Source: Deferribacterales bacterium (GTDB taxonomy: Bacteria > Chrysiogenota > Deferribacteres > Deferribacterales > Geovibrionaceae). Taken from it: a DNA stretch of 19,240 nucleotides. The notes below the pieces were generated by a model, which saw nothing but the letters and a program-made list of their open reading frames with translations, ran no database searches and was not told the origin of the DNA. The stretch covers positions 1 through 19,240 of the forward strand of contig JBFWJG010000044.1 in NCBI GenBank assembly GCA_050253335.1, read 5' to 3'. The translations under genes were made by a program, and so were the position numbers. This document shows positions 2,264 through 18,395 of this stretch, one piece after another. The stretch's first letter is position 1. Each line of letters opens with the position of its first letter.

Positions 2264-2376
2264 CAAGTATCTCCCCTCCCTGGTTTCTTCCGCTTGGCCG
2301 CTCTTAAAATAATGCTTTTTTCCCTGTCATAATTGTTTTATAATCTTATCTTTAATAACCGGTCGGGATAGTGGTG

Positions 2377-4287
2377 ATGAACAAAAAAAACAAGAGCCCA
2401 GAAACCCTTTTTCACTCATTTCTTCAGTCAGTAGACAGGCATAAAAACAACACGGCATTCATATACAGATCAGCGGAACAGGAACACACTGTAACCTATG
2501 AAAAGCTTTTCGAAGATGTGCTTATCCTTTCCCGCGCTTTTTCGGAAAAGAAAATTGTTAAGGATACCCGTGTCCTTCTTCTTTCAGACAACAGATATGC
2601 ATGGATAGTGACAGATCTCGCCCTTGCCTCCCTCGGAGCCATAAGCGTTCCCCGCGGAAGCGAATGTCCCGAACAGGAACTGGCGTTCATCATGGAGCAT
2701 TCCGGCTGTGAGTTCATTATCTTTGAAACGGAAAAGCTTTATGATGACCACAAAGCCTTTGTGAACACACTGGAAGGGGTGAAAGGCATATTCATAATGG
2801 AAGGCGGACACAGACACAAAATTTTTTCCCGCGTTTACACCTATAACGACCTTCTCACAGACAGAACCATATCAGACGAGGACATTGCCCGCTTCAGAGC
2901 GAGAAAACACAAGCTTTTCAAAGAGGATGTCTTCACCCTTATCTATACATCCGGAACAACGGGCGTGCCCAAGGGGGTTATGCTCACCCATGACAATATA
3001 ATGCTTAACCTTGAAGTGATTCCTGTGCTCATAGCTCTGAGGCCGGATGATATGTGGCTTTCCATTCTTCCCACATGGCACATATTTGAGCGCGCGGCGG
3101 AATACGCCGCACTTATGAGCGGCTGCTGCACTGTTTATTCATCCATAAAAACCTTCTCTGCCGATCTCGAACAGTACAGGCCGACAATTGTGGCAACCGT
3201 GCCCCGTCTCTGGGAATCCATGTACACCAAGGTGAACGCCGCTGTTGAAAAGCAGGGTAAAGCGAAGCACAGGATATTCACAACCCTTGTGGCGGTATCT
3301 TCCGCCTACAGAAGAAACAAGCGCCGCCTGAAAGGGCATCTGCCTGTTTTTGAAAAAGAACCGGTAATGAAGAAAATTATCAATGATATAAAAGCCTTTG
3401 CAGCGTGCTGTGCTCTTTTCCCGCTGAACATGCTGGCGGTAAAAAAACTGAAAGCGGTTCAGGCAAAGTTCGGCGGAAGAATGCGGCTTGCCATAAGCGG
3501 CGGCGGCAGTCTGCCCCAGTATCTGGATGAGTGGATAGACGCACTGGGGATAAGGATTATCAACGCATACGGAATGACGGAATGTGCTCCGGCCATAGCC
3601 GGCAGGGCACTCAACTGCGAAGTTTTCGGAACTCTGGGACCTGCTGTCGGCAACACAAAGCTGAGGATAGCCGATGAAGAGAACAACCCTCTTCCCGCGG
3701 GTGTTGAAGGCGAGATTCAGGTGAAGGGCAGGCAGGTTATGCCCGGCTATTATGACAACGACATTGAAAACGAAAAGACATTCACCCCTGACGGATACCT
3801 TAAAACCGGCGATTTGGGTAAACTCACGCTTACCGGAGAGCTTGTCATAACCGGCAGAATAAAAGAGATCATAGTCCTTGCCAACGGCGAGAACATAGAC
3901 CCCAGTCGTATCGAATCAACCATAACCAAGCTCCCCTTTGTTAAGGACGCTGTGCTTGTCGGGCAGGACAGAAAAGGGCTCGGCGCACTTATTGTTCCCG
4001 ATCTTGAAAAGCTTAAAGAAACTTTCCTGCCCAAGATTGAGAACATGGTGCATGATGTCGAGGATATGCTGAAGGACGGCCGTGTTATAGAGCAGGCGAA
4101 AAAGGAAATCAACAAACTGCTCAATGCCAAGAAGGGTTTCAAGCCACATGAAAAAGTGCACAATATCCATTTCATGGAAAATGATTTTGAGCCGGGGAAA
4201 GATCTCACCAATACACTGAAAAAGAAGAGACATGCCATAGAAAAGAGGTATCATAGCATTATACAGAAACTTTTCGGAAAAGATTAA
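2377..4287 (+). CDS. Long-chain fatty acid--CoA ligase (AMP-binding, FadD15-like)
   Basis: Intact YTSGTTGVPKG P-loop, YGMTE, TGDLG, GRIKE and C-terminal LTNTLK lysine. Start is ATG 2377 or GTG 2371/2374. Confidence 0.9.
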   Translation: MNKKNKSPETLFHSFLQSVDRHKNNTAFIYRSAEQEHTVTYEKLFEDVLILSRAFSEKKIVKDTRVLLLSDNRYAWIVTDLALASLGAISVPRGSECPEQELAFIMEHSGCEFIIFETEKLYDDHKAFVNTLEGVKGIFIMEGGHRHKIFSRVYTYNDLLTDRTISDEDIARFRARKHKLFKEDVFTLIYTSGTTGVPKGVMLTHDNIMLNLEVIPVLIALRPDDMWLSILPTWHIFERAAEYAALMSGCCTVYSSIKTFSADLEQYRPTIVATVPRLWESMYTKVNAAVEKQGKAKHRIFTTLVAVSSAYRRNKRRLKGHLPVFEKEPVMKKIINDIKAFAACCALFPLNMLAVKKLKAVQAKFGGRMRLAISGGGSLPQYLDEWIDALGIRIINAYGMTECAPAIAGRALNCEVFGTLGPAVGNTKLRIADEENNPLPAGVEGEIQVKGRQVMPGYYDNDIENEKTFTPDGYLKTGDLGKLTLTGELVITGRIKEIIVLANGENIDPSRIESTITKLPFVKDAVLVGQDRKGLGALIVPDLEKLKETFLPKIENMVHDVEDMLKDGRVIEQAKKEINKLLNAKKGFKPHEKVHNIHFMENDFEPGKDLTNTLKKKRHAIEKRYHSIIQKLFGKD

Positions 4288-9456: not shown

Positions 9457-9689
9457 CATTTTCCTTAAAATTGAAATAATAAAATATCCTTTAGCTATCA
9501 ATAGTTATGCTTATTTTTTGCCCACTTGGATATATTTCTGGTTAAATCTTAATCAGGTTTGTCCACCGGACTGGAAGTGCCCTGTTCAGGATAATTGAAA
9601 ATATGGGTTTATTTATCAACGGACTGCTTGAACAGAGGCATTTTTAAGTGTAGTATTGAAAGATATTATTTTTTTCCGGTGTGTGGATA

Positions 9690-10055
9690 ATGAGCCTGTT
9701 TGATGAAGAAAAGCGCAGCAGTGAGCGCACCCCTCTGCGTACTGAATTTTTTATACGCAGAAGCGTGGAAGGAGAACTTTTTGAGCCTTTCAAAGTTTTT
9801 GACATAACCGAAAACGGTATGCGTGTCAGAGACAACGGCAGGCTCAGAGGGGCGGATGTTCTTGAGATAGGAACATACGACAAGGTTAAAAAACTCGGGG
9901 TAAAAGACGCGGGCGAGAACCCTACGTACAACGATACGCTTTTCGTGGGCATCATGAAAGGGCGTGCCGTCTGGAATGACGACCACTTTACAGGGATAGA
10001 AATATTCGAAATATCAAAGGAATGCGCAGAAAAGATCAGTATGCTTTCTGATTAG
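9690..10055 (+). CDS. PilZ-domain protein (putative c-di-GMP receptor)
   Basis: RxxxR (RSSER) followed by a DxSxxG-like motif (DITENG) and a C-terminal GRAVW..TGIE strand pattern. ATG 9690 is preferred over GTG 9681. Confidence 0.7.
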   Translation: MSLFDEEKRSSERTPLRTEFFIRRSVEGELFEPFKVFDITENGMRVRDNGRLRGADVLEIGTYDKVKKLGVKDAGENPTYNDTLFVGIMKGRAVWNDDHFTGIEIFEISKECAEKISMLSD

Positions 10056-11200: not shown

Positions 11201-11608
11201 CTAGCGTGAGAGAGCCTTCAGAACGTCGCCGAGGGAAACAAGGCCTACGACCTCTTCATTTTCGACAACGGGAAGGCGGTGAACATATTTCTCAAGCATT
11301 ATTCTTGCCGCCTCTTTAACATCTGAATCGGGGCTGATTGTGAACCTGGGTTCGGACATCACCATGCGGACGGAGTTGTCCGTCAGCTCTTTAATGTCAA
11401 TGAGCGGAATGGCGTCTGCGTCATTGAGAATGTCCGGAAGCGCCATCATCACATCCGATTCGCTGAAAACTCCGATAAGTTTTCCGCTGCTGTTTACCAC
11501 GGGCAGACCGGAAATTTTATTTGTTCTGAGCCTGAGAATAACCTCTTTTATAGTTTCATCGGGTCTCGCGGTGATGACCTTGGTCGTCATAATTTCTCTG
11601 ATCTTCAA
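11201..11608 (-). CDS. Stand-alone CBS-pair (Bateman domain) protein
   Basis: Two CBS repeats (ISGLPVV..GVFSESD; VHRLPVV..GLVSLGD). Likely start is TTG at 11608 (MKIREIMT), 6 nt after SD AAGGAG and just after the Acs-like stop. Confidence 0.9.
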   Translation of the reverse strand: MKIREIMTTKVITARPDETIKEVILRLRTNKISGLPVVNSSGKLIGVFSESDVMMALPDILNDADAIPLIDIKELTDNSVRMVMSEPRFTISPDSDVKEAARIMLEKYVHRLPVVENEEVVGLVSLGDVLKALSR

Positions 11609-11621
11609 GTTAAGCTCCTTG

Positions 11622-13499
11622 CTACATCTGCATTGCAATATCTTTAAGCAGATCGCGGAGAATTACTCCGTCGGGAGATTTCGGCAGTGTCCTTGTGAAT
11701 CTTATTTCACTGGGCAGAGCGATTTCTCCTATTTCTTCAATAATCCGCTCTCTCAATTCCCTGACGGTGGTGTCGTGATAGCTTTCATCTATCTCTTTTT
11801 TCAGAACGCTGAACGCAATAAGGGCATCCCCGCGCTTTTCGTCGGGAATGCTTACCACTGCACAGTCTTCAACGTTGTCGTGTGTTTTTATAGCTTCTTC
11901 AATTTCAATCAAACTGAGCCTTTTGCCGCCCAGATGGAGAACATCGTCCATCCTGCCTTTAAGGATAAGATAGCCTTCGGAGTTGATTTCGGCCGAGTCC
12001 CCTGTTTTGAAGAATACATTATTATTATAAGATTTCCAGTAAATTTTTTTATAAGTGTCATAGGAATTGTTTATGGTTCTGCAGAGTGAAGGCATGGGCT
12101 TGTCCAGAACCAGCGCTCCTTGAGTCCCCGGTTCGGGGAGAATCTCGCCGCTGGCGTTGTTTATTATCTTCACGGAAACGCCGGGGAGAGGTTTGGAAAC
12201 GGTGCCCGGTCTGCATTCTTCATAGCCCGGCACAGCGGACGCGATGGCGCCTCCGGTCTCTGTAATGGAGTATATGTCGAAAAGAGCGGCGTTATAATTG
12301 CCCAGCGCCTTTGCCGTCCACTCTCTGATATCGTCTGTCATCTTTTCGCCCCCTGTGGCTATCAACTCAAGGGTGTCCAGCTTCATGTACTTCTTCTTTT
12401 TTTGCGCTGCGTTCATAAGGGATTTCAATATCGACGGTCTTGTATACAGTTTATTGACGCAGAATTTATCGCATATGTCGTAAAACCTGTGGGCGTTGTC
12501 CATGTCTATGGTGTCTTCAAACACAAGCACGGTCTCCCCCGCCATGAGCGGGCCGTACACAAGGTACGAGTGTCCGGTTATCCACGCTATGTCCGCTGTG
12601 CACCAGAATGTGTCCGTGTCGCGGGCGTCAAACATCAGCAGATAGGAAAAGTAAGCCCACAGAAGATAGCCGGCGGTGTGGAAAACAAGCGCTTTGGGAT
12701 CCTTCATGTTTGTTGAGGTATAAAGCATGAACATGGGATCTTCGGCGCGGGCATATTCCTGCCCTATATTTTTTGCCATGGAGTAGTGCTCATCGCTTAT
12801 GAGATCATGAAACCAAATGTCGCGCAAAGGCTTCATATGAACCCGCTTTGACACTCGCTCCACCACTATGCAGTACTGCGGCTGGTGGTCGGATATTATC
12901 AGAGCATTGTCCAGCTTGTTTTTCAGGTTCTGATTGGCTGTTACGGTTCCGTCCGCAGTGATGATTATTTTCGGGCGGCAGTCGTTAATTCTGTCCGCCA
13001 GAGAGTCGGTTGAGTAGCTTGTGTGGTAAACAATGTGCACCGCGCCCAGCTTCACGCAGGCAAGCATGGCAATGATCAGTTCGGGGATGTTGGGCAGATG
13101 GAGAAGAACCTTGTCCCCTTTTTTGAGTCCCAGTTTTTTAAGGGCGGAGGAGCATTTTATCACTTCAGAGTATAAGGACTGATATGTGTAAACCATCTGG
13201 GAGTGGTCGGCGCCTTTCCATATGATCGCCGCCTTGTTCTTCTTCGTTGTTGTCAGGTGCTTGCCCAGAACATTTTCCAGAGGGCAGAGCGTTCCGTTCT
13301 CGTAATATCTCGGAGTGAGCTTCTCACCCCAGTAAAGCGATGTATATTCCTTTTCCCAAACGAGATATTTTTTAGCCAGATAATCATGAAGCTGTTCATA
13401 GTCCCCGCTTAGGGAGCGTATTTTGTCCAGCTCCGCTTTGCTGAGGCTGTGCCTCTGGAAATTTCTGCAGTTTTCGGCCAGTCTTGAATAAATGGACAT
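11622..13499 (-). CDS. Acetyl-CoA synthetase-like protein with degenerate catalytic motifs (candidate pseudoenzyme)
   Basis: Acs signatures FWCTADIAWITGHSYLVYGPL, TETGG, TGD, GRMDDV. P-loop reads YTSTNMKDPKA and A10 reads LPKSPDGVILR. Start ATG 13499 follows GAGGTGGAG. Confidence 0.88.
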   Translation of the reverse strand: MSIYSRLAENCRNFQRHSLSKAELDKIRSLSGDYEQLHDYLAKKYLVWEKEYTSLYWGEKLTPRYYENGTLCPLENVLGKHLTTTKKNKAAIIWKGADHSQMVYTYQSLYSEVIKCSSALKKLGLKKGDKVLLHLPNIPELIIAMLACVKLGAVHIVYHTSYSTDSLADRINDCRPKIIITADGTVTANQNLKNKLDNALIISDHQPQYCIVVERVSKRVHMKPLRDIWFHDLISDEHYSMAKNIGQEYARAEDPMFMLYTSTNMKDPKALVFHTAGYLLWAYFSYLLMFDARDTDTFWCTADIAWITGHSYLVYGPLMAGETVLVFEDTIDMDNAHRFYDICDKFCVNKLYTRPSILKSLMNAAQKKKKYMKLDTLELIATGGEKMTDDIREWTAKALGNYNAALFDIYSITETGGAIASAVPGYEECRPGTVSKPLPGVSVKIINNASGEILPEPGTQGALVLDKPMPSLCRTINNSYDTYKKIYWKSYNNNVFFKTGDSAEINSEGYLILKGRMDDVLHLGGKRLSLIEIEEAIKTHDNVEDCAVVSIPDEKRGDALIAFSVLKKEIDESYHDTTVRELRERIIEEIGEIALPSEIRFTRTLPKSPDGVILRDLLKDIAMQM

Positions 13500-13648
13500 G
13501 CTCCACCTCGGTGATCTTGAAAAATAACACGTTTGTTTAAAAATGTACAATGGCAAAATATATATTTATTATGCTAATAGGCGCTTTCTGAATAAAAAGC
13601 TCATATATATGTTTTAAGATATTCTCTGATAATTCCTGTGTTCTGTTT

Positions 13649-15568
13649 TCAGCGTCCGATTATTTTTGAGAAATATCTCTTGGTGGAATCCTGAAGCTTG
13701 CTGGTCACCTTGAATGCTTCCTTCAGAAGATCCGCTTCCTGATCGCTGAGAGTGTCTGGATCAAGGTAATGGCTCGGCTCCATGTTCTGTTCAATGAGGT
13801 TTATCTCATTTTGAAGACGCAGGTAAGTAAATGACTCAAAAGCCGCTTTAAGGTTCTCTATGGTTGATTTGTTGAACAGTTTTCTTTCCAGAAGAACATC
13901 AAGCCTGTCCAGCGTGGTTACGGCGTGCACTCCCTGCTCAAGGGTGAACATTCGGGCGCAGTCCACTATGAATATGCTGCCGTTCTCCTTGAGGGAGAGC
14001 TTCCCTTTGTGTTCCTTTTCGCCGGATGTGATGAACCTGCCCAGAAGGTTAAGCGGAACCTTGTGCCTGAAGTCCAGTTCCATCATCTGAAAAAGGAAGA
14101 GGGGATTTGCCTTTATTTCCTGAAAAACGGTTTCCCTCAGACTGTCGCAGAGCGATTCCTCGCCGACGATGGGCATGAAGTCAAAGAATATGGATGAGTA
14201 GCGCACTCTCTGGGGCTCGGGCACACGAACCCATCTGCTTACTCTCTCCTTCCATTCGGAAAGCCGTCCCCGCCATTCAGGATTGTTTACCATGACCTTT
14301 CCGTTGCAGAGGTGATAGCCTATGTCGGCCAGAGCGGACACAAGCCTTTCCGCAAACGGGTCAAAAAATGCTTCTACATCCTCGTGGAGCTCGTCCGGAT
14401 AGTCCTCGAATATGAAGCCGTTGTCCTGATCGGGTCCCAGAAGCATCTCTTTGCGCCCTCCGCTTCCCATTATGATGAAGGTGTATTTCACAGGCGGAAG
14501 CCTGTTCCCCTCTTTCTGCATCGATGCCAGAACCACCTCGAAACAGCGGCGTATTATGCTGTGGTGTATATAAGAGAGAATTTCCATTGTTTCCACATGG
14601 GAGCGGTTTTCAGCCAGAAGGATCTTGGCGACTTTCACAATCTCGCCCCTTATGTGGGTGAGCTCCTCTATTGTTTCCGCTTCCTTCGCGCTGCCCACAA
14701 GTAGCATTGATTTCTGGCTGCGGAACTTCATAAGATCCTGAATGGAAACTATGCCGACTATGTTGTTTCCTTCAAGGATCGGCAGGTGTCTTATGCTGTG
14801 GCGGAGCATGAAGGTCGCCGCTTCATACATATATGTGTCCGGACGCATGAAGATGGGATCAGGGGTCATTACATCCTTTGCGGTGAAGTGTTTAAGGCAG
14901 TTGTCAGTGTCAGTGGCGAGAACCTTGCGCACCATATCCCTTTCGGTGACTATGCCCGCCATATTGCCGTCATCCCCGCGGACGACAAGGGCGGCTATGT
15001 CCTGCTCGGTCATTTTCAGGGCGATTTCGCGCACAGGGGTTGTGAGCCTGCATGTTTCCACAGGTCTGGACATTATCTCTATAAGACGCTTCTGGAAGGG
15101 GTATGCCTCCATCTGCGCCACAGGGTCAAGGGACTTGTGCTCTGTCATTTCGTGGTAGAGCTTTCTTATCTGGGAGTAGATCGCCTTGTTGAAATAGTTG
15201 GATATAATGGGGTGCTGCTGTGCCATGTTGAGGAGCGGCTCTTTAGGGATAAGCAGACAATGGGTTTCCTCCATTGTTTTCGCTCCGGCGGCGTAGTTCT
15301 CGCTTGTGAATATTGGCGACCAGCCGAAGAATCCGCCCGGCTTGCGGTAATCCACAACCATTTCCACGCCTTCGCCTGTTTCCGCGGTAATCTCAACCAG
15401 TCCGCTTTGAATGAAGTATAAGTATCCGTTGGGTTCGGAGCGCTGGGTAAAGAGTACGACCCCGCCGGGATAAACAGCGCTTTTGGAGAGTGATTCCAGA
15501 TCGTCTGCCGCTTTCTGCGGAATATGATTAAAAGGTTCGCATTCATGCAGTCTTTTAAGCTCGCTCAT
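13649..15568 (-). CDS. cNMP-binding-fold / CBS-pair / DUF294 nucleotidyltransferase-like / DUF294_C protein
   Basis: N-terminal CAP-like barrel (LYFIQSGLVEI..GGFFG), two CBS repeats (GIVTERD; IRHLPI), GSGGRKE..DQDN motif, CNGKVMVNNPEW and IFFDF. Confidence 0.92.
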   Translation of the reverse strand: MSELKRLHECEPFNHIPQKAADDLESLSKSAVYPGGVVLFTQRSEPNGYLYFIQSGLVEITAETGEGVEMVVDYRKPGGFFGWSPIFTSENYAAGAKTMEETHCLLIPKEPLLNMAQQHPIISNYFNKAIYSQIRKLYHEMTEHKSLDPVAQMEAYPFQKRLIEIMSRPVETCRLTTPVREIALKMTEQDIAALVVRGDDGNMAGIVTERDMVRKVLATDTDNCLKHFTAKDVMTPDPIFMRPDTYMYEAATFMLRHSIRHLPILEGNNIVGIVSIQDLMKFRSQKSMLLVGSAKEAETIEELTHIRGEIVKVAKILLAENRSHVETMEILSYIHHSIIRRCFEVVLASMQKEGNRLPPVKYTFIIMGSGGRKEMLLGPDQDNGFIFEDYPDELHEDVEAFFDPFAERLVSALADIGYHLCNGKVMVNNPEWRGRLSEWKERVSRWVRVPEPQRVRYSSIFFDFMPIVGEESLCDSLRETVFQEIKANPLFLFQMMELDFRHKVPLNLLGRFITSGEKEHKGKLSLKENGSIFIVDCARMFTLEQGVHAVTTLDRLDVLLERKLFNKSTIENLKAAFESFTYLRLQNEINLIEQNMEPSHYLDPDTLSDQEADLLKEAFKVTSKLQDSTKRYFSKIIGR

Positions 15569-15675: not shown

Positions 15676-16050
15676 TTATTCTGCTGCGGCTGCCTTCTTT
15701 TTTCTTCCGAAAACAAAAGGGTGCGCCTGCTGGCGGAGTACGAAATCCGCGAATATCTTGCCCCAGATTGTTATGCCCGCCATTGCGGACCATTTATCGT
15801 AAGGGTAGCCCAGAGCTATCACGCCGAAAGCCGTCCAGAGAGTGAAAAGTCCTGCCGTAAGATGTATTATTCCTGCGAAAGGAGCCCATTTTCTGGGATT
15901 TGCGGGTGCCACGCCTCTTTTGAGGGCTACTTCGGAGTAGTCATTCTTGATAAAAATACGCCATGCGCGGCGGAGCCAGAAAAAGGTCAATGGGAAAAGC
16001 GCAAGAAACAGAACCCATGTAAGCGCCAGACTAACGTAAGAATAATGCAT
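15676..16050 (-). CDS. Small hypothetical membrane protein (about 3 TM)
   Basis: Three hydrophobic segments and a basic C-tail; SD AAGGAG; co-oriented directly after the symporter. Confidence 0.8.
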   Translation of the reverse strand: MHYSYVSLALTWVLFLALFPLTFFWLRRAWRIFIKNDYSEVALKRGVAPANPRKWAPFAGIIHLTAGLFTLWTAFGVIALGYPYDKWSAMAGITIWGKIFADFVLRQQAHPFVFGRKKKAAAAE

Positions 16051-16161: not shown

Positions 16162-17967
16162 TTAGTGTCCGCCAGTGGCTTCGCCGGCGCCCTTGGGGAT
16201 ACGTACGTTTTCAACCATCTCTGCTATGTGCTCGGGAACAGGTGTGGTCATGTTTTTCACAGCGAAAGCCACTGCGAAGTTGATAACCGCGCCTATTGCG
16301 CCGAAGGCGTTGGGAGATATTCCGAAGAAGAAGTCCTTGCCGCCGAACAGAGCGTAGTATTCAGTTCCTTTGATGTAGAATATTCCTGTGTGAGCGAAAA
16401 CATAGAACATAGTGGCGAAGAGACCTGCAAGCATGCCCGCTATGGCGCCCTGTTTGTTCATTGTTTTGCTGAATATTCCCATCATAAGTGCAGGGAAGAT
16501 AGAGGAGGCCGCAAGACCGAACGCTATCGCCACCGTACCTGCCGCGAAGTCGGGCGGGTTCATGCCGAGGTAGCCTGCGCCTACGATTGCAGCAGCCATG
16601 GCTATACGTCCTGCCATAAGTTCGCCTTTCTCACTGAGATCCTTCATGAACATGTTTTTCAGAAGGTCATGTGAAACCGCGGATGATATCGCAAGAAGGA
16701 GACCTGCCGCAGTTGAAAGAGCCGCCGCAAGACCGCCTGCCGCCACAAGTGCTATAACCCAGTTAGGAAGCCTTGCGATTTCGGGGTTTGCGAGAACCAT
16801 AATATCCACGTTAACTCCGAGCTCATTGCCCTGCCAGCCTGCTGCTTCGGCTTTGGAGAGGAACTCGGCGTCTTTTGATTTGTCGTTGTAGTACTGGATG
16901 CGGCCGTCAGCGTTTTTGTCTTCAAATTTAAGAAGGCCTGTGACTTCCCAGCGCTTGAACCAGTCGGGACGGTTGTCATAGGCAATGCTTGATTCTTCGG
17001 CAAAAACATCTCCGCCGGACTGAACAGCAGTGTTGATTGTGGCGTGAAGGTTAAGGCGAGCCATAGCTGCAATTGCGGGAGCAGTTGTGTAGAGGATCGC
17101 GATGAAAACCAGCGCCCAGCCTGCTGAGGAACGGGCATCTTTAACTTTGGGAACCGTGAAGAAGCGGATGATAACGTGCGGTAGACCCGCAGTACCTATC
17201 ATCAGCGACACAGTGTAAACAAACATGTTCAGCCTGTCGCCGGGCAGTGCCGTGGTGTACTTCCCGAAGCCGAGGTCATTGACTATCTGATCCAGTTTTT
17301 CAAGCATGTGCATGTCTGAGCCGCTGAAAGTTGAGCCGAGACCAAGCTGGGGAATCGGGTTGCCGGTAAGCTGGAATGATATGAAAATTGCGGGGACAGT
17401 GTACGCAAGGATCAGAACACAGTACTGAGCAACCTGAGTATAGGTAATGCCTTTCATGCCTCCGAAAACCGCGTAAACGAAAACTATCGCCATACCGATT
17501 ATAACGCCCATGTTGTTTGACACGCCGAGGAAACGGGAAAATGCCACGCCGACGCCGGTCATCTGACCGATGATGTACGTGGTTGAAGCTACCAGAAGAC
17601 AAATTACCGCCACAATTGTAGCTGTGTCGGAATAGAAACGTGCTTTGAAGAAATCAGGTACTGTGAATTTTCCGAATTTTCTCAGATAAGGTGCCAGAAG
17701 CATGGCGAGGAGAACGTAGCCCCCAGTCCAGCCCATAAGGAACAGTGCACCGCCGTAACCCATATAGCCGATCATACCGGCCATTGAGATGAAGGAAGCC
17801 GCAGACATCCAGTCCGCTCCGGTTGCCATACCGTTCATGATGGGGTGAACACCGCCGCCCGCTACATAAAACTCTTTTGTGCTGCCCGCACGCGCCCAGA
17901 AGGCGATACCTATGTACAGAGCAAATGTTAAACCAACTACCAGATAAGTCGTTGCCTGTAAACTCAT
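16162..17967 (-). CDS. actP: Sodium:solute symporter, ActP-like cation/acetate symporter (VC_2705-type)
   Basis: GMATGADWMSAASF, APYLRKFGKFTVPDF, GGMKGITYTQV, GTAGLPH..RFFT, AAALSTAAGLL; preceded by a DUF4212 gene. Substrate is inferred. Confidence 0.85.
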   Translation of the reverse strand: MSLQATTYLVVGLTFALYIGIAFWARAGSTKEFYVAGGGVHPIMNGMATGADWMSAASFISMAGMIGYMGYGGALFLMGWTGGYVLLAMLLAPYLRKFGKFTVPDFFKARFYSDTATIVAVICLLVASTTYIIGQMTGVGVAFSRFLGVSNNMGVIIGMAIVFVYAVFGGMKGITYTQVAQYCVLILAYTVPAIFISFQLTGNPIPQLGLGSTFSGSDMHMLEKLDQIVNDLGFGKYTTALPGDRLNMFVYTVSLMIGTAGLPHVIIRFFTVPKVKDARSSAGWALVFIAILYTTAPAIAAMARLNLHATINTAVQSGGDVFAEESSIAYDNRPDWFKRWEVTGLLKFEDKNADGRIQYYNDKSKDAEFLSKAEAAGWQGNELGVNVDIMVLANPEIARLPNWVIALVAAGGLAAALSTAAGLLLAISSAVSHDLLKNMFMKDLSEKGELMAGRIAMAAAIVGAGYLGMNPPDFAAGTVAIAFGLAASSIFPALMMGIFSKTMNKQGAIAGMLAGLFATMFYVFAHTGIFYIKGTEYYALFGGKDFFFGISPNAFGAIGAVINFAVAFAVKNMTTPVPEHIAEMVENVRIPKGAGEATGGH

Positions 17968-17977
17968 TATCCCCTCC

Positions 17978-18232
17978 TTACTTCTCTGCTACATCAAATT
18001 CTTCGTCGATTTTACCCATCAGCTTCACATAAATGAAGATGAGAGCGACAAAGATATAGATGGAGCCCTGCTGAGCAAACCAGAAACCGAGAGGGTAACC
18101 GCCCACTTTGATTTTATCCAGCGCGCTTGCGAACATAATTCCTGCTCCGTAAGAGCATAAAAACCATACTATCAGGACGTTGCGAATAAGTCCTAATACC
18201 TTTTTCCAGTAAAGCTCATGTGACTTTTCCAT
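17978..18232 (-). CDS. DUF4212-type small membrane subunit of the SSS transporter
   Basis: Two TM segments with GYPLGFWFAQQGSI; immediately upstream of the symporter; SD GAGGTG. Confidence 0.9.
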   Translation of the reverse strand: MEKSHELYWKKVLGLIRNVLIVWFLCSYGAGIMFASALDKIKVGGYPLGFWFAQQGSIYIFVALIFIYVKLMGKIDEEFDVAEK

Positions 18233-18366: not shown

Positions 18367-18395
18367 ATAATAGTAAACCGTTTTAAAATTGTCAA
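18367..18395 (-). promoter_or_regulatory. Near-consensus sigma70 promoter of the DUF4212-actP operon
   Basis: TTGACA (18395-18390), 17-nt spacer, TATTAT (18372-18367). Confidence 0.7.

Follow-up and report, generated by a model that had tools for sequence, protein, structure and literature searches.

A minus-strand gene at positions 11622 to 13499 of contig JBFWJG010000044.1, from a Deferribacterales bacterium, encodes a 625-residue protein, P0001, that is derived from acetyl-CoA synthetase (Acs) and very probably lacks ligase activity, judging from the known roles of the residues it has lost. The window analyzed here is the 19,240-nucleotide stretch of that contig, and the G, C and L numbers used below are our handles for genomes, contigs and loci. 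The gene is kept under strong selection and is not decaying. The family to which it belongs is real, conserved and misannotated, and it is apparently undescribed. A non-catalytic role in a module made up of a symporter, a DUF294 nucleotidyltransferase and a DEDDh exonuclease-type protein is probable. Within that frame we favor, at a probability of roughly 45%, the reading in which the pseudoenzyme is an adenylate-sensing regulatory subunit that binds and gates a dedicated DEDDh protein of this acetate-uptake module.

An Acs fold without the Acs catalytic residues

The reading frame of P0001 contains no internal stop and a Shine-Dalgarno-like sequence, GAGGTGGAG (positions 13501 to 13509, minus strand), lies just 5' of its ATG, as an earlier reading of the window from its letters (the sequence-only reading) had reported. 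Its best-scoring family models are those of Acs, yet it remains under their cut-offs (TIGR02188, 546 versus 724.95 bits). It aligns to Salmonella enterica Acs (2p2b) with an E value of 4e-109 (phmmer) and about 37% identity. Matches to AMP-binding (PF00501, 213 bits) and AMP-binding_C (PF13193, 68 bits) place P0001 in the ANL superfamily, as does a predicted model with a local distance difference test (pLDDT) score of 87.9 that has the two-domain Acs fold (template modeling (TM) score of 0.80 to 1PG3 in Foldseek). The A5 Glu, A7 Asp and A8 Arg of that superfamily (E414, D501 and R516 in P0001) are present in all 51 family members compared. P0001 thus belongs to the ANL superfamily by fold, yet fails every sequence test for AcsA.

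The residues lost lie in both half-reaction sites (Salmonella numbering is used unless P0001 is named). The Acs P-loop TSGSTGKPKG reads TSTNMKDPKA in P0001 (within YTSTNMKDPKA, Y260 to A270, positions 12690 to 12722, minus strand), with loss of G266, G269 and G273; position 266 is Thr or Ser in 51/51 members. The position of the A10 lysine, K609, is taken by Val612 (positions 11664 to 11666, minus strand), and the A5 motif DTWWQTETGG has become DIYSITETGG (positions 12249 to 12278, minus strand), without W414. In the former CoA site, YHTSYS replaces (V/I)FGGFS (positions 13011 to 13028, minus strand), F163, G164 and G165 giving way to H159, T160 and S161, of which H159 is shared by 47/51 members; R191 is replaced by T187. 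All of these P-loop, A10, A5, CoA-site and arginine substitutions had been claimed in the sequence-only reading, and alignment to S. enterica Acs bears them out, together with the coordinates given there. To them can be added A357 to R354, V386 to G383, R584 to I587 and P589 to E592, as well as the loss of the C-terminal tail, which after the A10 position measures 13 to 16 residues versus 35 to 51 in 66 canonical Acs.

These are not chance differences, because G266, G269, K609, F163, R191, A357, V386 and W414 are each 100% conserved in the 66 canonical homologues (for K609 and the P-loop this follows from the selection of the set on those two motifs). Across the family, 0/51 members have G266, S267, V386, W414, F163, G164, R191 or A357, and R584, which is only 42% conserved in the canonical set, is also found in 0/51. 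G165 is kept in two members. Five of the 51 have Lys at position 609, all five being without the P-loop glycines.

What is kept lies on the AMP side. The A7/A8 region (positions 11919 to 11999, minus strand) retains D501, R516, D518 and R527 of P0001 (D500, R515, D517 and R526 in Salmonella). E417, D500, R515 and D517 are found in 51/51 members, T416 and G387 in 50/51, Asp or Asn at position 411 in 46/51 and R526 in 37/51. G387, D411, T416, D500 and R515 are nucleotide contacts of the Salmonella enzyme, in which A357 keeps the CoA tunnel open. This pattern of kept residues suggests that the family may retain nucleotide binding. The roles of the other residues in Acs are described in passages of PMC10455477 (R191, R526, R584 and W414), PMC6122825 (the P-loop and F163) and PMC11255334 (K609, equivalent to K549, the catalytic lysine and site of acetylation).

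An acyl-CoA ligase at positions 2371 to 4287, put forward in the sequence-only reading as an internal control, does keep its P-loop (YTSGTTGVPKG) and an A10-type lysine motif near the C-terminus (TNTLKKKR), but it is a long-chain FadD-type enzyme and not an Acs.

A family maintained in three lineages

Orthologues were found in 32/68 Deferribacterota genomes (a sample of the whole phylum), in 15/151 genomes sampled from Desulfuromonadia (the class of Desulfuromusa kysingii, the carriers falling in Desulfuromonadales), and in 6/6 genomes of a third lineage, a separate phylum. Thirty of the 32 Deferribacterota copies are full-length open frames; the copy in G005 is split and that in G202 is cut by the contig end. 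When 1.84 billion representatives were searched with a profile, three clusters of the family emerged, and each lineage accounted for one of them. The family forms one side of a branch with a support of 100 in both trees that were built (FastTree, 81 rows; IQ-TREE with LG+G4, 37 rows; both midpoint-rooted). Values of dN/dS range from 0.019 to 0.100 with a median of 0.052, as estimated from 38 of the 1275 possible pairs among 51 sequences (about 75% identity or more over the last 300 residues, 0.05<dS<1.5), these pairs not being independent of one another. Shared loss of catalytic residues, an intact frame and purifying selection together characterize a selected pseudoenzyme.

The sequence-only reading had proposed a selected non-catalytic protein that annotation pipelines mislabel. 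Orthologues sharing its substitutions, with dN/dS below 1, were indeed found, and in UniRef and GenBank the members go under the names "acetate--CoA ligase" or "acetyl-CoA synthetase"; non-catalysis itself we infer from the lesions. A full-text literature search, with most subscription journals outside its scope, yielded no description of the family. To our reading, this defines a family of free-standing pseudoenzymes within the ANL superfamily, maintained by anaerobes of three lineages. Contigs from a compost metatranscriptome (four runs of one study) thinly cover parts of the gene, such contigs being blind to expression level and strand.

One candidate, P0139 (1273 residues), received a high profile score and was left uncounted. 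It combines an intact-looking PrpE/Acs-type unit, resembling a PrpE enzyme, with a second Acs-type unit that is degenerate in a different way, its P-loop reading YTAEASGNPKG while the A10 lysine is kept. The trees do not include it; in appearance it is a separate case of degeneration, in tandem form.

Acetate activation in the carrier genomes

The sequence-only reading had called for a canonical acs elsewhere in the genome, and none was found in the window's own genome, which is 99.94% complete. The next-best Acs-like match there, C24:19821-21659, is to a ligase of the medium-chain type, which has Gly where Acs has W414. No second acs-type match was detected in the 32 Deferribacterota carriers, nor in the 15 Desulfuromonadia carriers, where at most eight candidates were scored per genome and divergent copies may be missed. 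G020, the only Deferribacterota genome with other acs-type genes, is without the pseudoenzyme family, and none of the four sampled Desulfuromonadia genomes with a canonical-motif Acs is a carrier. Only in the third lineage do the pseudoenzyme and a canonical acs occur together; the latter is over the cut-off in G043 and G044, and at locus L049 it lies in the same cluster as the pseudoenzyme, in divergent orientation.

Other genes for acetate activation are at hand. The window's own genome has ackA, adjoined by a pta-like frame (judged by position and length), as well as a TIGR03458-like CoA-transferase (595 bits, under the cut-off of 658.7), likely of the succinyl-CoA:acetate type. AckA matches are present in 39/41 and TIGR03458 matches in 36/41 Deferribacterales. 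Passages of PMC9768450 state that acetate-oxidizing anaerobes with a tricarboxylic acid cycle use a CoA-transferase, which saves ATP, and that Limisalsivibrio probably does so too; PMC11896075 gave no information on acetate activation. In the genome paper of D. autotrophicus (PMC6896113), two genes for acetyl-CoA synthetase are held responsible for activating acetate. The family member in that genome is likely one of these two, since it is the best Acs-like match there. Metabolic reconstructions would be corrected in such cases, with acetate-oxidizing anaerobes relying on CoA-transferase and AckA-Pta.

A dedicated DEDDh protein as the tightest associate

The closest associate of the pseudoenzyme lies outside the window. 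It is a dedicated DEDDh clade (A3) of 228 to 234 residues with its catalytic residues intact (D49, E51, D134, H189 and D194 are invariant), whose gene in the window's own genome is at G000:C30:25231-25917 (minus strand), unlinked to that of the pseudoenzyme. Presence or absence of this clade tracks that of the pseudoenzyme in 67/68 Deferribacterota and 151/151 Desulfuromonadia genomes, although kinship inflates all co-occurrence tallies reported here and Fisher tests overstate them likewise. In Desulfuromonadia the clade occurs in the same 15/151 genomes (E<=1e-83, the next best match being at 1e-32). In Deferribacterota, where the two genes are unlinked, it occurs in 33/68, namely the 32 carriers and G037, and in the third lineage it was found in all five genomes searched.

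Outside Deferribacterota, the DEDDh gene is directly upstream of the pseudoenzyme gene in 27/27 loci with upstream DNA; a further locus begins with the pseudoenzyme gene itself. Spacing was measured in 23 loci: it is −13 to +7 nucleotides in 22 and 85 nucleotides in the remaining one, four loci having been skipped as partial or short. The DEDDh gene remains adjoined to that of the pseudoenzyme where DUF294 has moved off.

Complex prediction for the pair, with 51-row alignments for both chains, gave a score of 0.50, whereas the best of three controls scored 0.00; this supports an interaction weakly. Between runs, 89% or more of the contacts agree, and the partner pLDDT is 82 or higher. Of solved complexes, 116/157 reached the mark, as did 2/215 mismatches, and the passing scores of up to 0.60 comprised 18 solved complexes and both mismatches. 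A mirror-tree correlation between pseudoenzyme and DEDDh (r 0.95) was set aside, as shared ancestry explains it and it had no control.

Many of the closest longer relatives of the DEDDh clade carry PAS sensor domains. At Desulfuromusa-type loci (L046:5066-7225 and 12 others), a 719-residue DEDDh protein with a weak PAS match is encoded directly upstream of the pair formed by the short DEDDh gene and the pseudoenzyme gene. In G037 (assembly 94% complete, 260 contigs), the usual pseudoenzyme site upstream of the CBS gene (L122, G037:C228:356-2416) is taken up by a GPR1/FUN34/YaaH acetate-channel gene and by a short helix-turn-helix frame that looks, by eye, like a transposase; neither DUF294 nor a TIGR03458 match was found in this assembly. 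It is possible that active uptake has been swapped for a channel in this organism.

Proposed role and alternative explanations

The favored reading is based on the lesions, the intact Acs fold and the signs of purifying selection, on most carriers being without a canonical acs, on the alternative activation genes, and on co-occurrence. A nucleotide-sensing partner, rather than an enzyme, is proposed because of the lesions, the usual status of the gene as the sole acs-like gene in its genome, and the constant co-occurrence with DEDDh. AMP or an adenylated ligand would still bind P0001 and swing its C-terminal domain, by analogy with active ANL enzymes, and the pseudoenzyme would bind the DEDDh protein and gate it. 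A target such as the symporter might receive a nucleotide from DUF294 and lose it again through DEDDh; GlnD/GlnE offer an analogy for the writing and erasing of a nucleotide mark. As to how such a protein may have arisen, anaerobes would have come to activate acetate by CoA-transferase and AckA-Pta, which are cheaper, a shift that could have freed Acs from catalysis while its regulatory role was kept. A full circuit, in which DUF294 writes the mark, the dead Acs reads either the mark or AMP/acyl-AMP, and the bound DEDDh erases it, so that acetate uptake is set to the energy state, is an unlikely elaboration. If true, however, it would mean that active Acs in the widespread acs-actP-DUF294-DEDDh clusters also moonlights as a sensor, a role laid bare by the dead copy. 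The family also provides a handle on the chemistry and target of the DUF294/DEDDh pair, in the form of a three-protein in vitro system free of confounding Acs activity.

Several observations weigh against this proposal. Adenylate binding is only suggested, because just 6/15 listed AMP-pocket positions hold the canonical residue in 90% or more of the members, which is not clearly above the background of 63/183 canonical-invariant columns; R526 is displaced in 14 Desulfuromusa-type members, and the AMP-side residues that are kept may be structural in role. G037 has the DEDDh and CBS genes but no pseudoenzyme. Co-occurrence is phylogenetically structured, the Deferribacterota without both genes being five whole families; as the genes adjoin outside Deferribacterota and absences fall in whole families, the independent events are few. 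A complex score of 0.50 falls where wrong passes outnumber right ones, except for a pair with good prior odds, although these odds are raised here because the pair was picked beforehand from co-occurrence. No fusion of pseudoenzyme and DEDDh was found among longer proteins (best 168 bits versus 329 to 373 for the listed orthologues), an apparent fused frame in G123 being left uncounted as it runs across unknown bases. In 17/30 Deferribacterales carriers there is no DUF294 gene nearby. Finally, the partner chemistry of DUF294 and DEDDh is unknown even in Pseudomonas, according to a passage of bioRxiv 10.64898/2026.09.07.749794.

Another explanation, itself improbable, keeps the protein non-catalytic but makes its direct partner the DUF294 nucleotidyltransferase or the symporter, to which it would serve as a sensor, scaffold or modification substrate, the link to DEDDh being indirect through the module. 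The DUF294 protein in the window (positions 13649 to 15568, minus strand) has cNMP-CBS-CBS-DUF294-DUF294_C domain matches and an intact nucleotidyltransferase motif, GSGGRKEMLLGPDQD. Among 41 Deferribacterales, DUF294 matches with a best E value of 1e-64 or lower occur in exactly the 30 carriers, G037 lacking both DUF294 and the pseudoenzyme; the DUF294 gene that adjoins the pseudoenzyme may be one or the other of two paralogues sharing about 28% identity (G004, G008); and the newly conserved Y158, H159 and D610 of P0001 line the former CoA and A10 sites. However, DUF294 matches occur in 99/151 Desulfuromonadia, against 15/151 with the pseudoenzyme, and therefore DUF294 does not need the pseudoenzyme. 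Moreover, the DUF294 gene is nearby in only 13/30 Deferribacterales and 10/15 Desulfuromonadia carriers. The partnership with the neighboring nucleotidyltransferase suggested in the sequence-only reading is thus supported in part, by co-occurrence in Deferribacterales (41/41 genomes) but not by proximity, nor in Desulfuromonadia.

It is rather less probable still that P0001 is a neofunctionalized enzyme with a widened pocket, carrying out, for example, hydrolysis of acyl-AMP or a dinucleotide, or acyl transfer to an acceptor other than CoA. Strong purifying selection would agree with this, as would the new near-invariant polar residues H159, D610 and E592. The acyl pocket is opened by the changes of W414 to S, G, T, F or Y and of V386 to G; Gly at position 414 marks longer-chain enzymes (passages of PMC10455477 and PMC6122825), and K549-acetylated AcsA is reportedly still able to perform the thioester half-reaction (PMC11255334, in part). 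Yet both half-reaction sites have been lost together, the replacement residues differ among the three lineages, unlike a conserved new active site, and the neighbors examined show no recurrent carrier protein or biosynthetic gene.

There is little to recommend, in our estimate, a regulator that acts with the downstream CBS protein on the enzymes really activating acetate (CoA-transferase or AckA), in the manner of the Thermus protein ADLP (precedent in the abstract of bioRxiv 10.1101/2025.10.31.685773). This stand-alone CBS-pair protein (135 residues, positions 11201 to 11608, minus strand) has a TTG start 13 nucleotides past the pseudoenzyme stop, with AAGGAG in between, and its orthologue is directly downstream of the pseudoenzyme gene in 27/30 Deferribacterales carriers and present in 30/30. 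However, no such orthologue was found in 5/5 non-Deferribacterota carriers searched (best E 2e-17, versus 2e-40 or lower for orthologues), and the gene occurs in two non-carriers, G027 and G037. Nor does the CoA-transferase, as a presumed target, follow the pseudoenzyme, as TIGR03458 matches are absent in carriers G018, G031, G038, G043 and G044 and present in 9/11 non-carriers.

That the gene still encodes a slow acyl-CoA ligase whose motifs are non-canonical, or that it is a pseudogene in decay, is very unlikely. The gene is the only acs-like gene in its own genome, K272 is kept in 45/51 members, and the relative G005 has a split frame; against this, the P-loop has gone together with K609 and the CoA contacts, the genome also offers AckA and a CoA-transferase, and full-length copies prevail with dN/dS at or below 0.10. 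Scarcely credible, lastly, is a decoy or regulator of canonical Acs, one of the options listed in the sequence-only reading, or a sink for the Acs acetyltransferase, since this idea fails in a genome with no canonical acs and the acetylation lysine itself is lost in 46/51 members, even though the third lineage has a canonical acs and 3/4 sampled members there have the A10 lysine.

Comparison with known systems

P0001 shares with canonical Acs its fold, domain layout and the AMP-side residues T416, E417, D500, R515 and R526, and differs from it in the catalytic and CoA-site residues, tail and family score described above. The closest counterpart of the module is the pair PP_0354/PP_0353 (Pflu5625; PA3233/PA3232), in which the same cNMP-CBS-DUF294 and DEDDh architectures stand beside ActP-type symporters. 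The pair belongs to the CrbS/R (MxtR/ErdR) acetate regulon, and mutants lacking pp_0353 or actP-I both grow poorly on pyruvate, according to passages of PMC9927547 (the mutants), PMC5715377 and the Pseudomonas preprint cited above. In contrast to the situation here, where the Acs-type gene is dead and DEDDh is a distinct clade with an N-terminal extension, Acs in Pseudomonas is active and essential.

The alanine dehydrogenase-like protein ADLP of Thermus thermophilus, which is inactive as an enzyme and senses NAD+, inhibits a CoA transferase (same abstract as above). If our reading holds, both would be dead metabolic enzymes that serve as nucleotide-sensing accessory subunits in short-chain acid metabolism; however, fold and ligand are unrelated, and the target of ADLP is known, whereas the CoA-transferase co-occurs only loosely here. 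The Bacillus AcsA-AcuABC system likewise has an Acs with regulatory partners, including the CBS-domain protein AcuB. Unlike P0001, AcsA is active and controlled by acetylation of K549 (PMC11255334, in part), a lysine whose equivalent is absent here, and unlike AcuB the CBS protein of the window is without an ACT domain.

Gene neighborhood and additional observations

The pseudoenzyme gene is part of a run of genes on the minus strand: DUF4212, a VC_2705-type symporter, a 124-residue membrane protein, cNMP-CBS-DUF294, the pseudoenzyme and the CBS pair. A promoter-like site ahead of the cluster, TTGACA-17-TATTAT (positions 18367 to 18395, minus strand), agrees with the consensus at 11/12 positions, a consensus match only. 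The symporter consists of a DUF4212 small subunit (positions 17978 to 18232, family match) and an ActP-related large subunit of the VC_2705 family of sodium/solute symporters (positions 16162 to 17967; TIGR03648, 805.8 bits, over the cut-off). With DUF294 and both symporter subunits in the window and DEDDh elsewhere, the genes of the DUF294/DEDDh/ActP-type acetate module are all present in this genome. Between the symporter and DUF294, the 124-residue hydrophobic protein (positions 15676 to 16050) has no family match; it is conserved in the cluster and occupies the same place in seven loci.

DUF294 is arranged differently elsewhere. In the third lineage (L049:1554-3416, L055:5368-7260, L067, L069) the protein is split into a free cNMP-binding protein (105 to 117 residues) and a CBS-DUF294 protein (470 to 473 residues), and the split genes are preceded by a hydrophobic frame of 78 to 91 residues belonging to no family. 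In one Deferribacterales family, a DUF294 paralogue lies beside ackA (G016:C1:802301-806213; G030:C2:95784-99480; G023:C13:13151-17246; G036:C10:6702-10000), three of these four loci also having a shorter DEDDh gene in the vicinity. The window's own genome has a second DUF294 paralogue (31% identical) at G000:C11, approximately 17500-21900, in divergent orientation to the genes for a short membrane protein and for a further SSS symporter, the second in this genome.

At Desulfuromonas-type loci (L061:5482-6948), the pseudoenzyme gene is followed by one for a protein of 480 to 488 residues with no Pfam or NCBIfam match, which faces a GGACT gene and DUF294. Within the window, a different 124-residue protein without a family match is encoded 5' of mtnA (positions 9681 to 10055, plus strand) and is conserved in close relatives.

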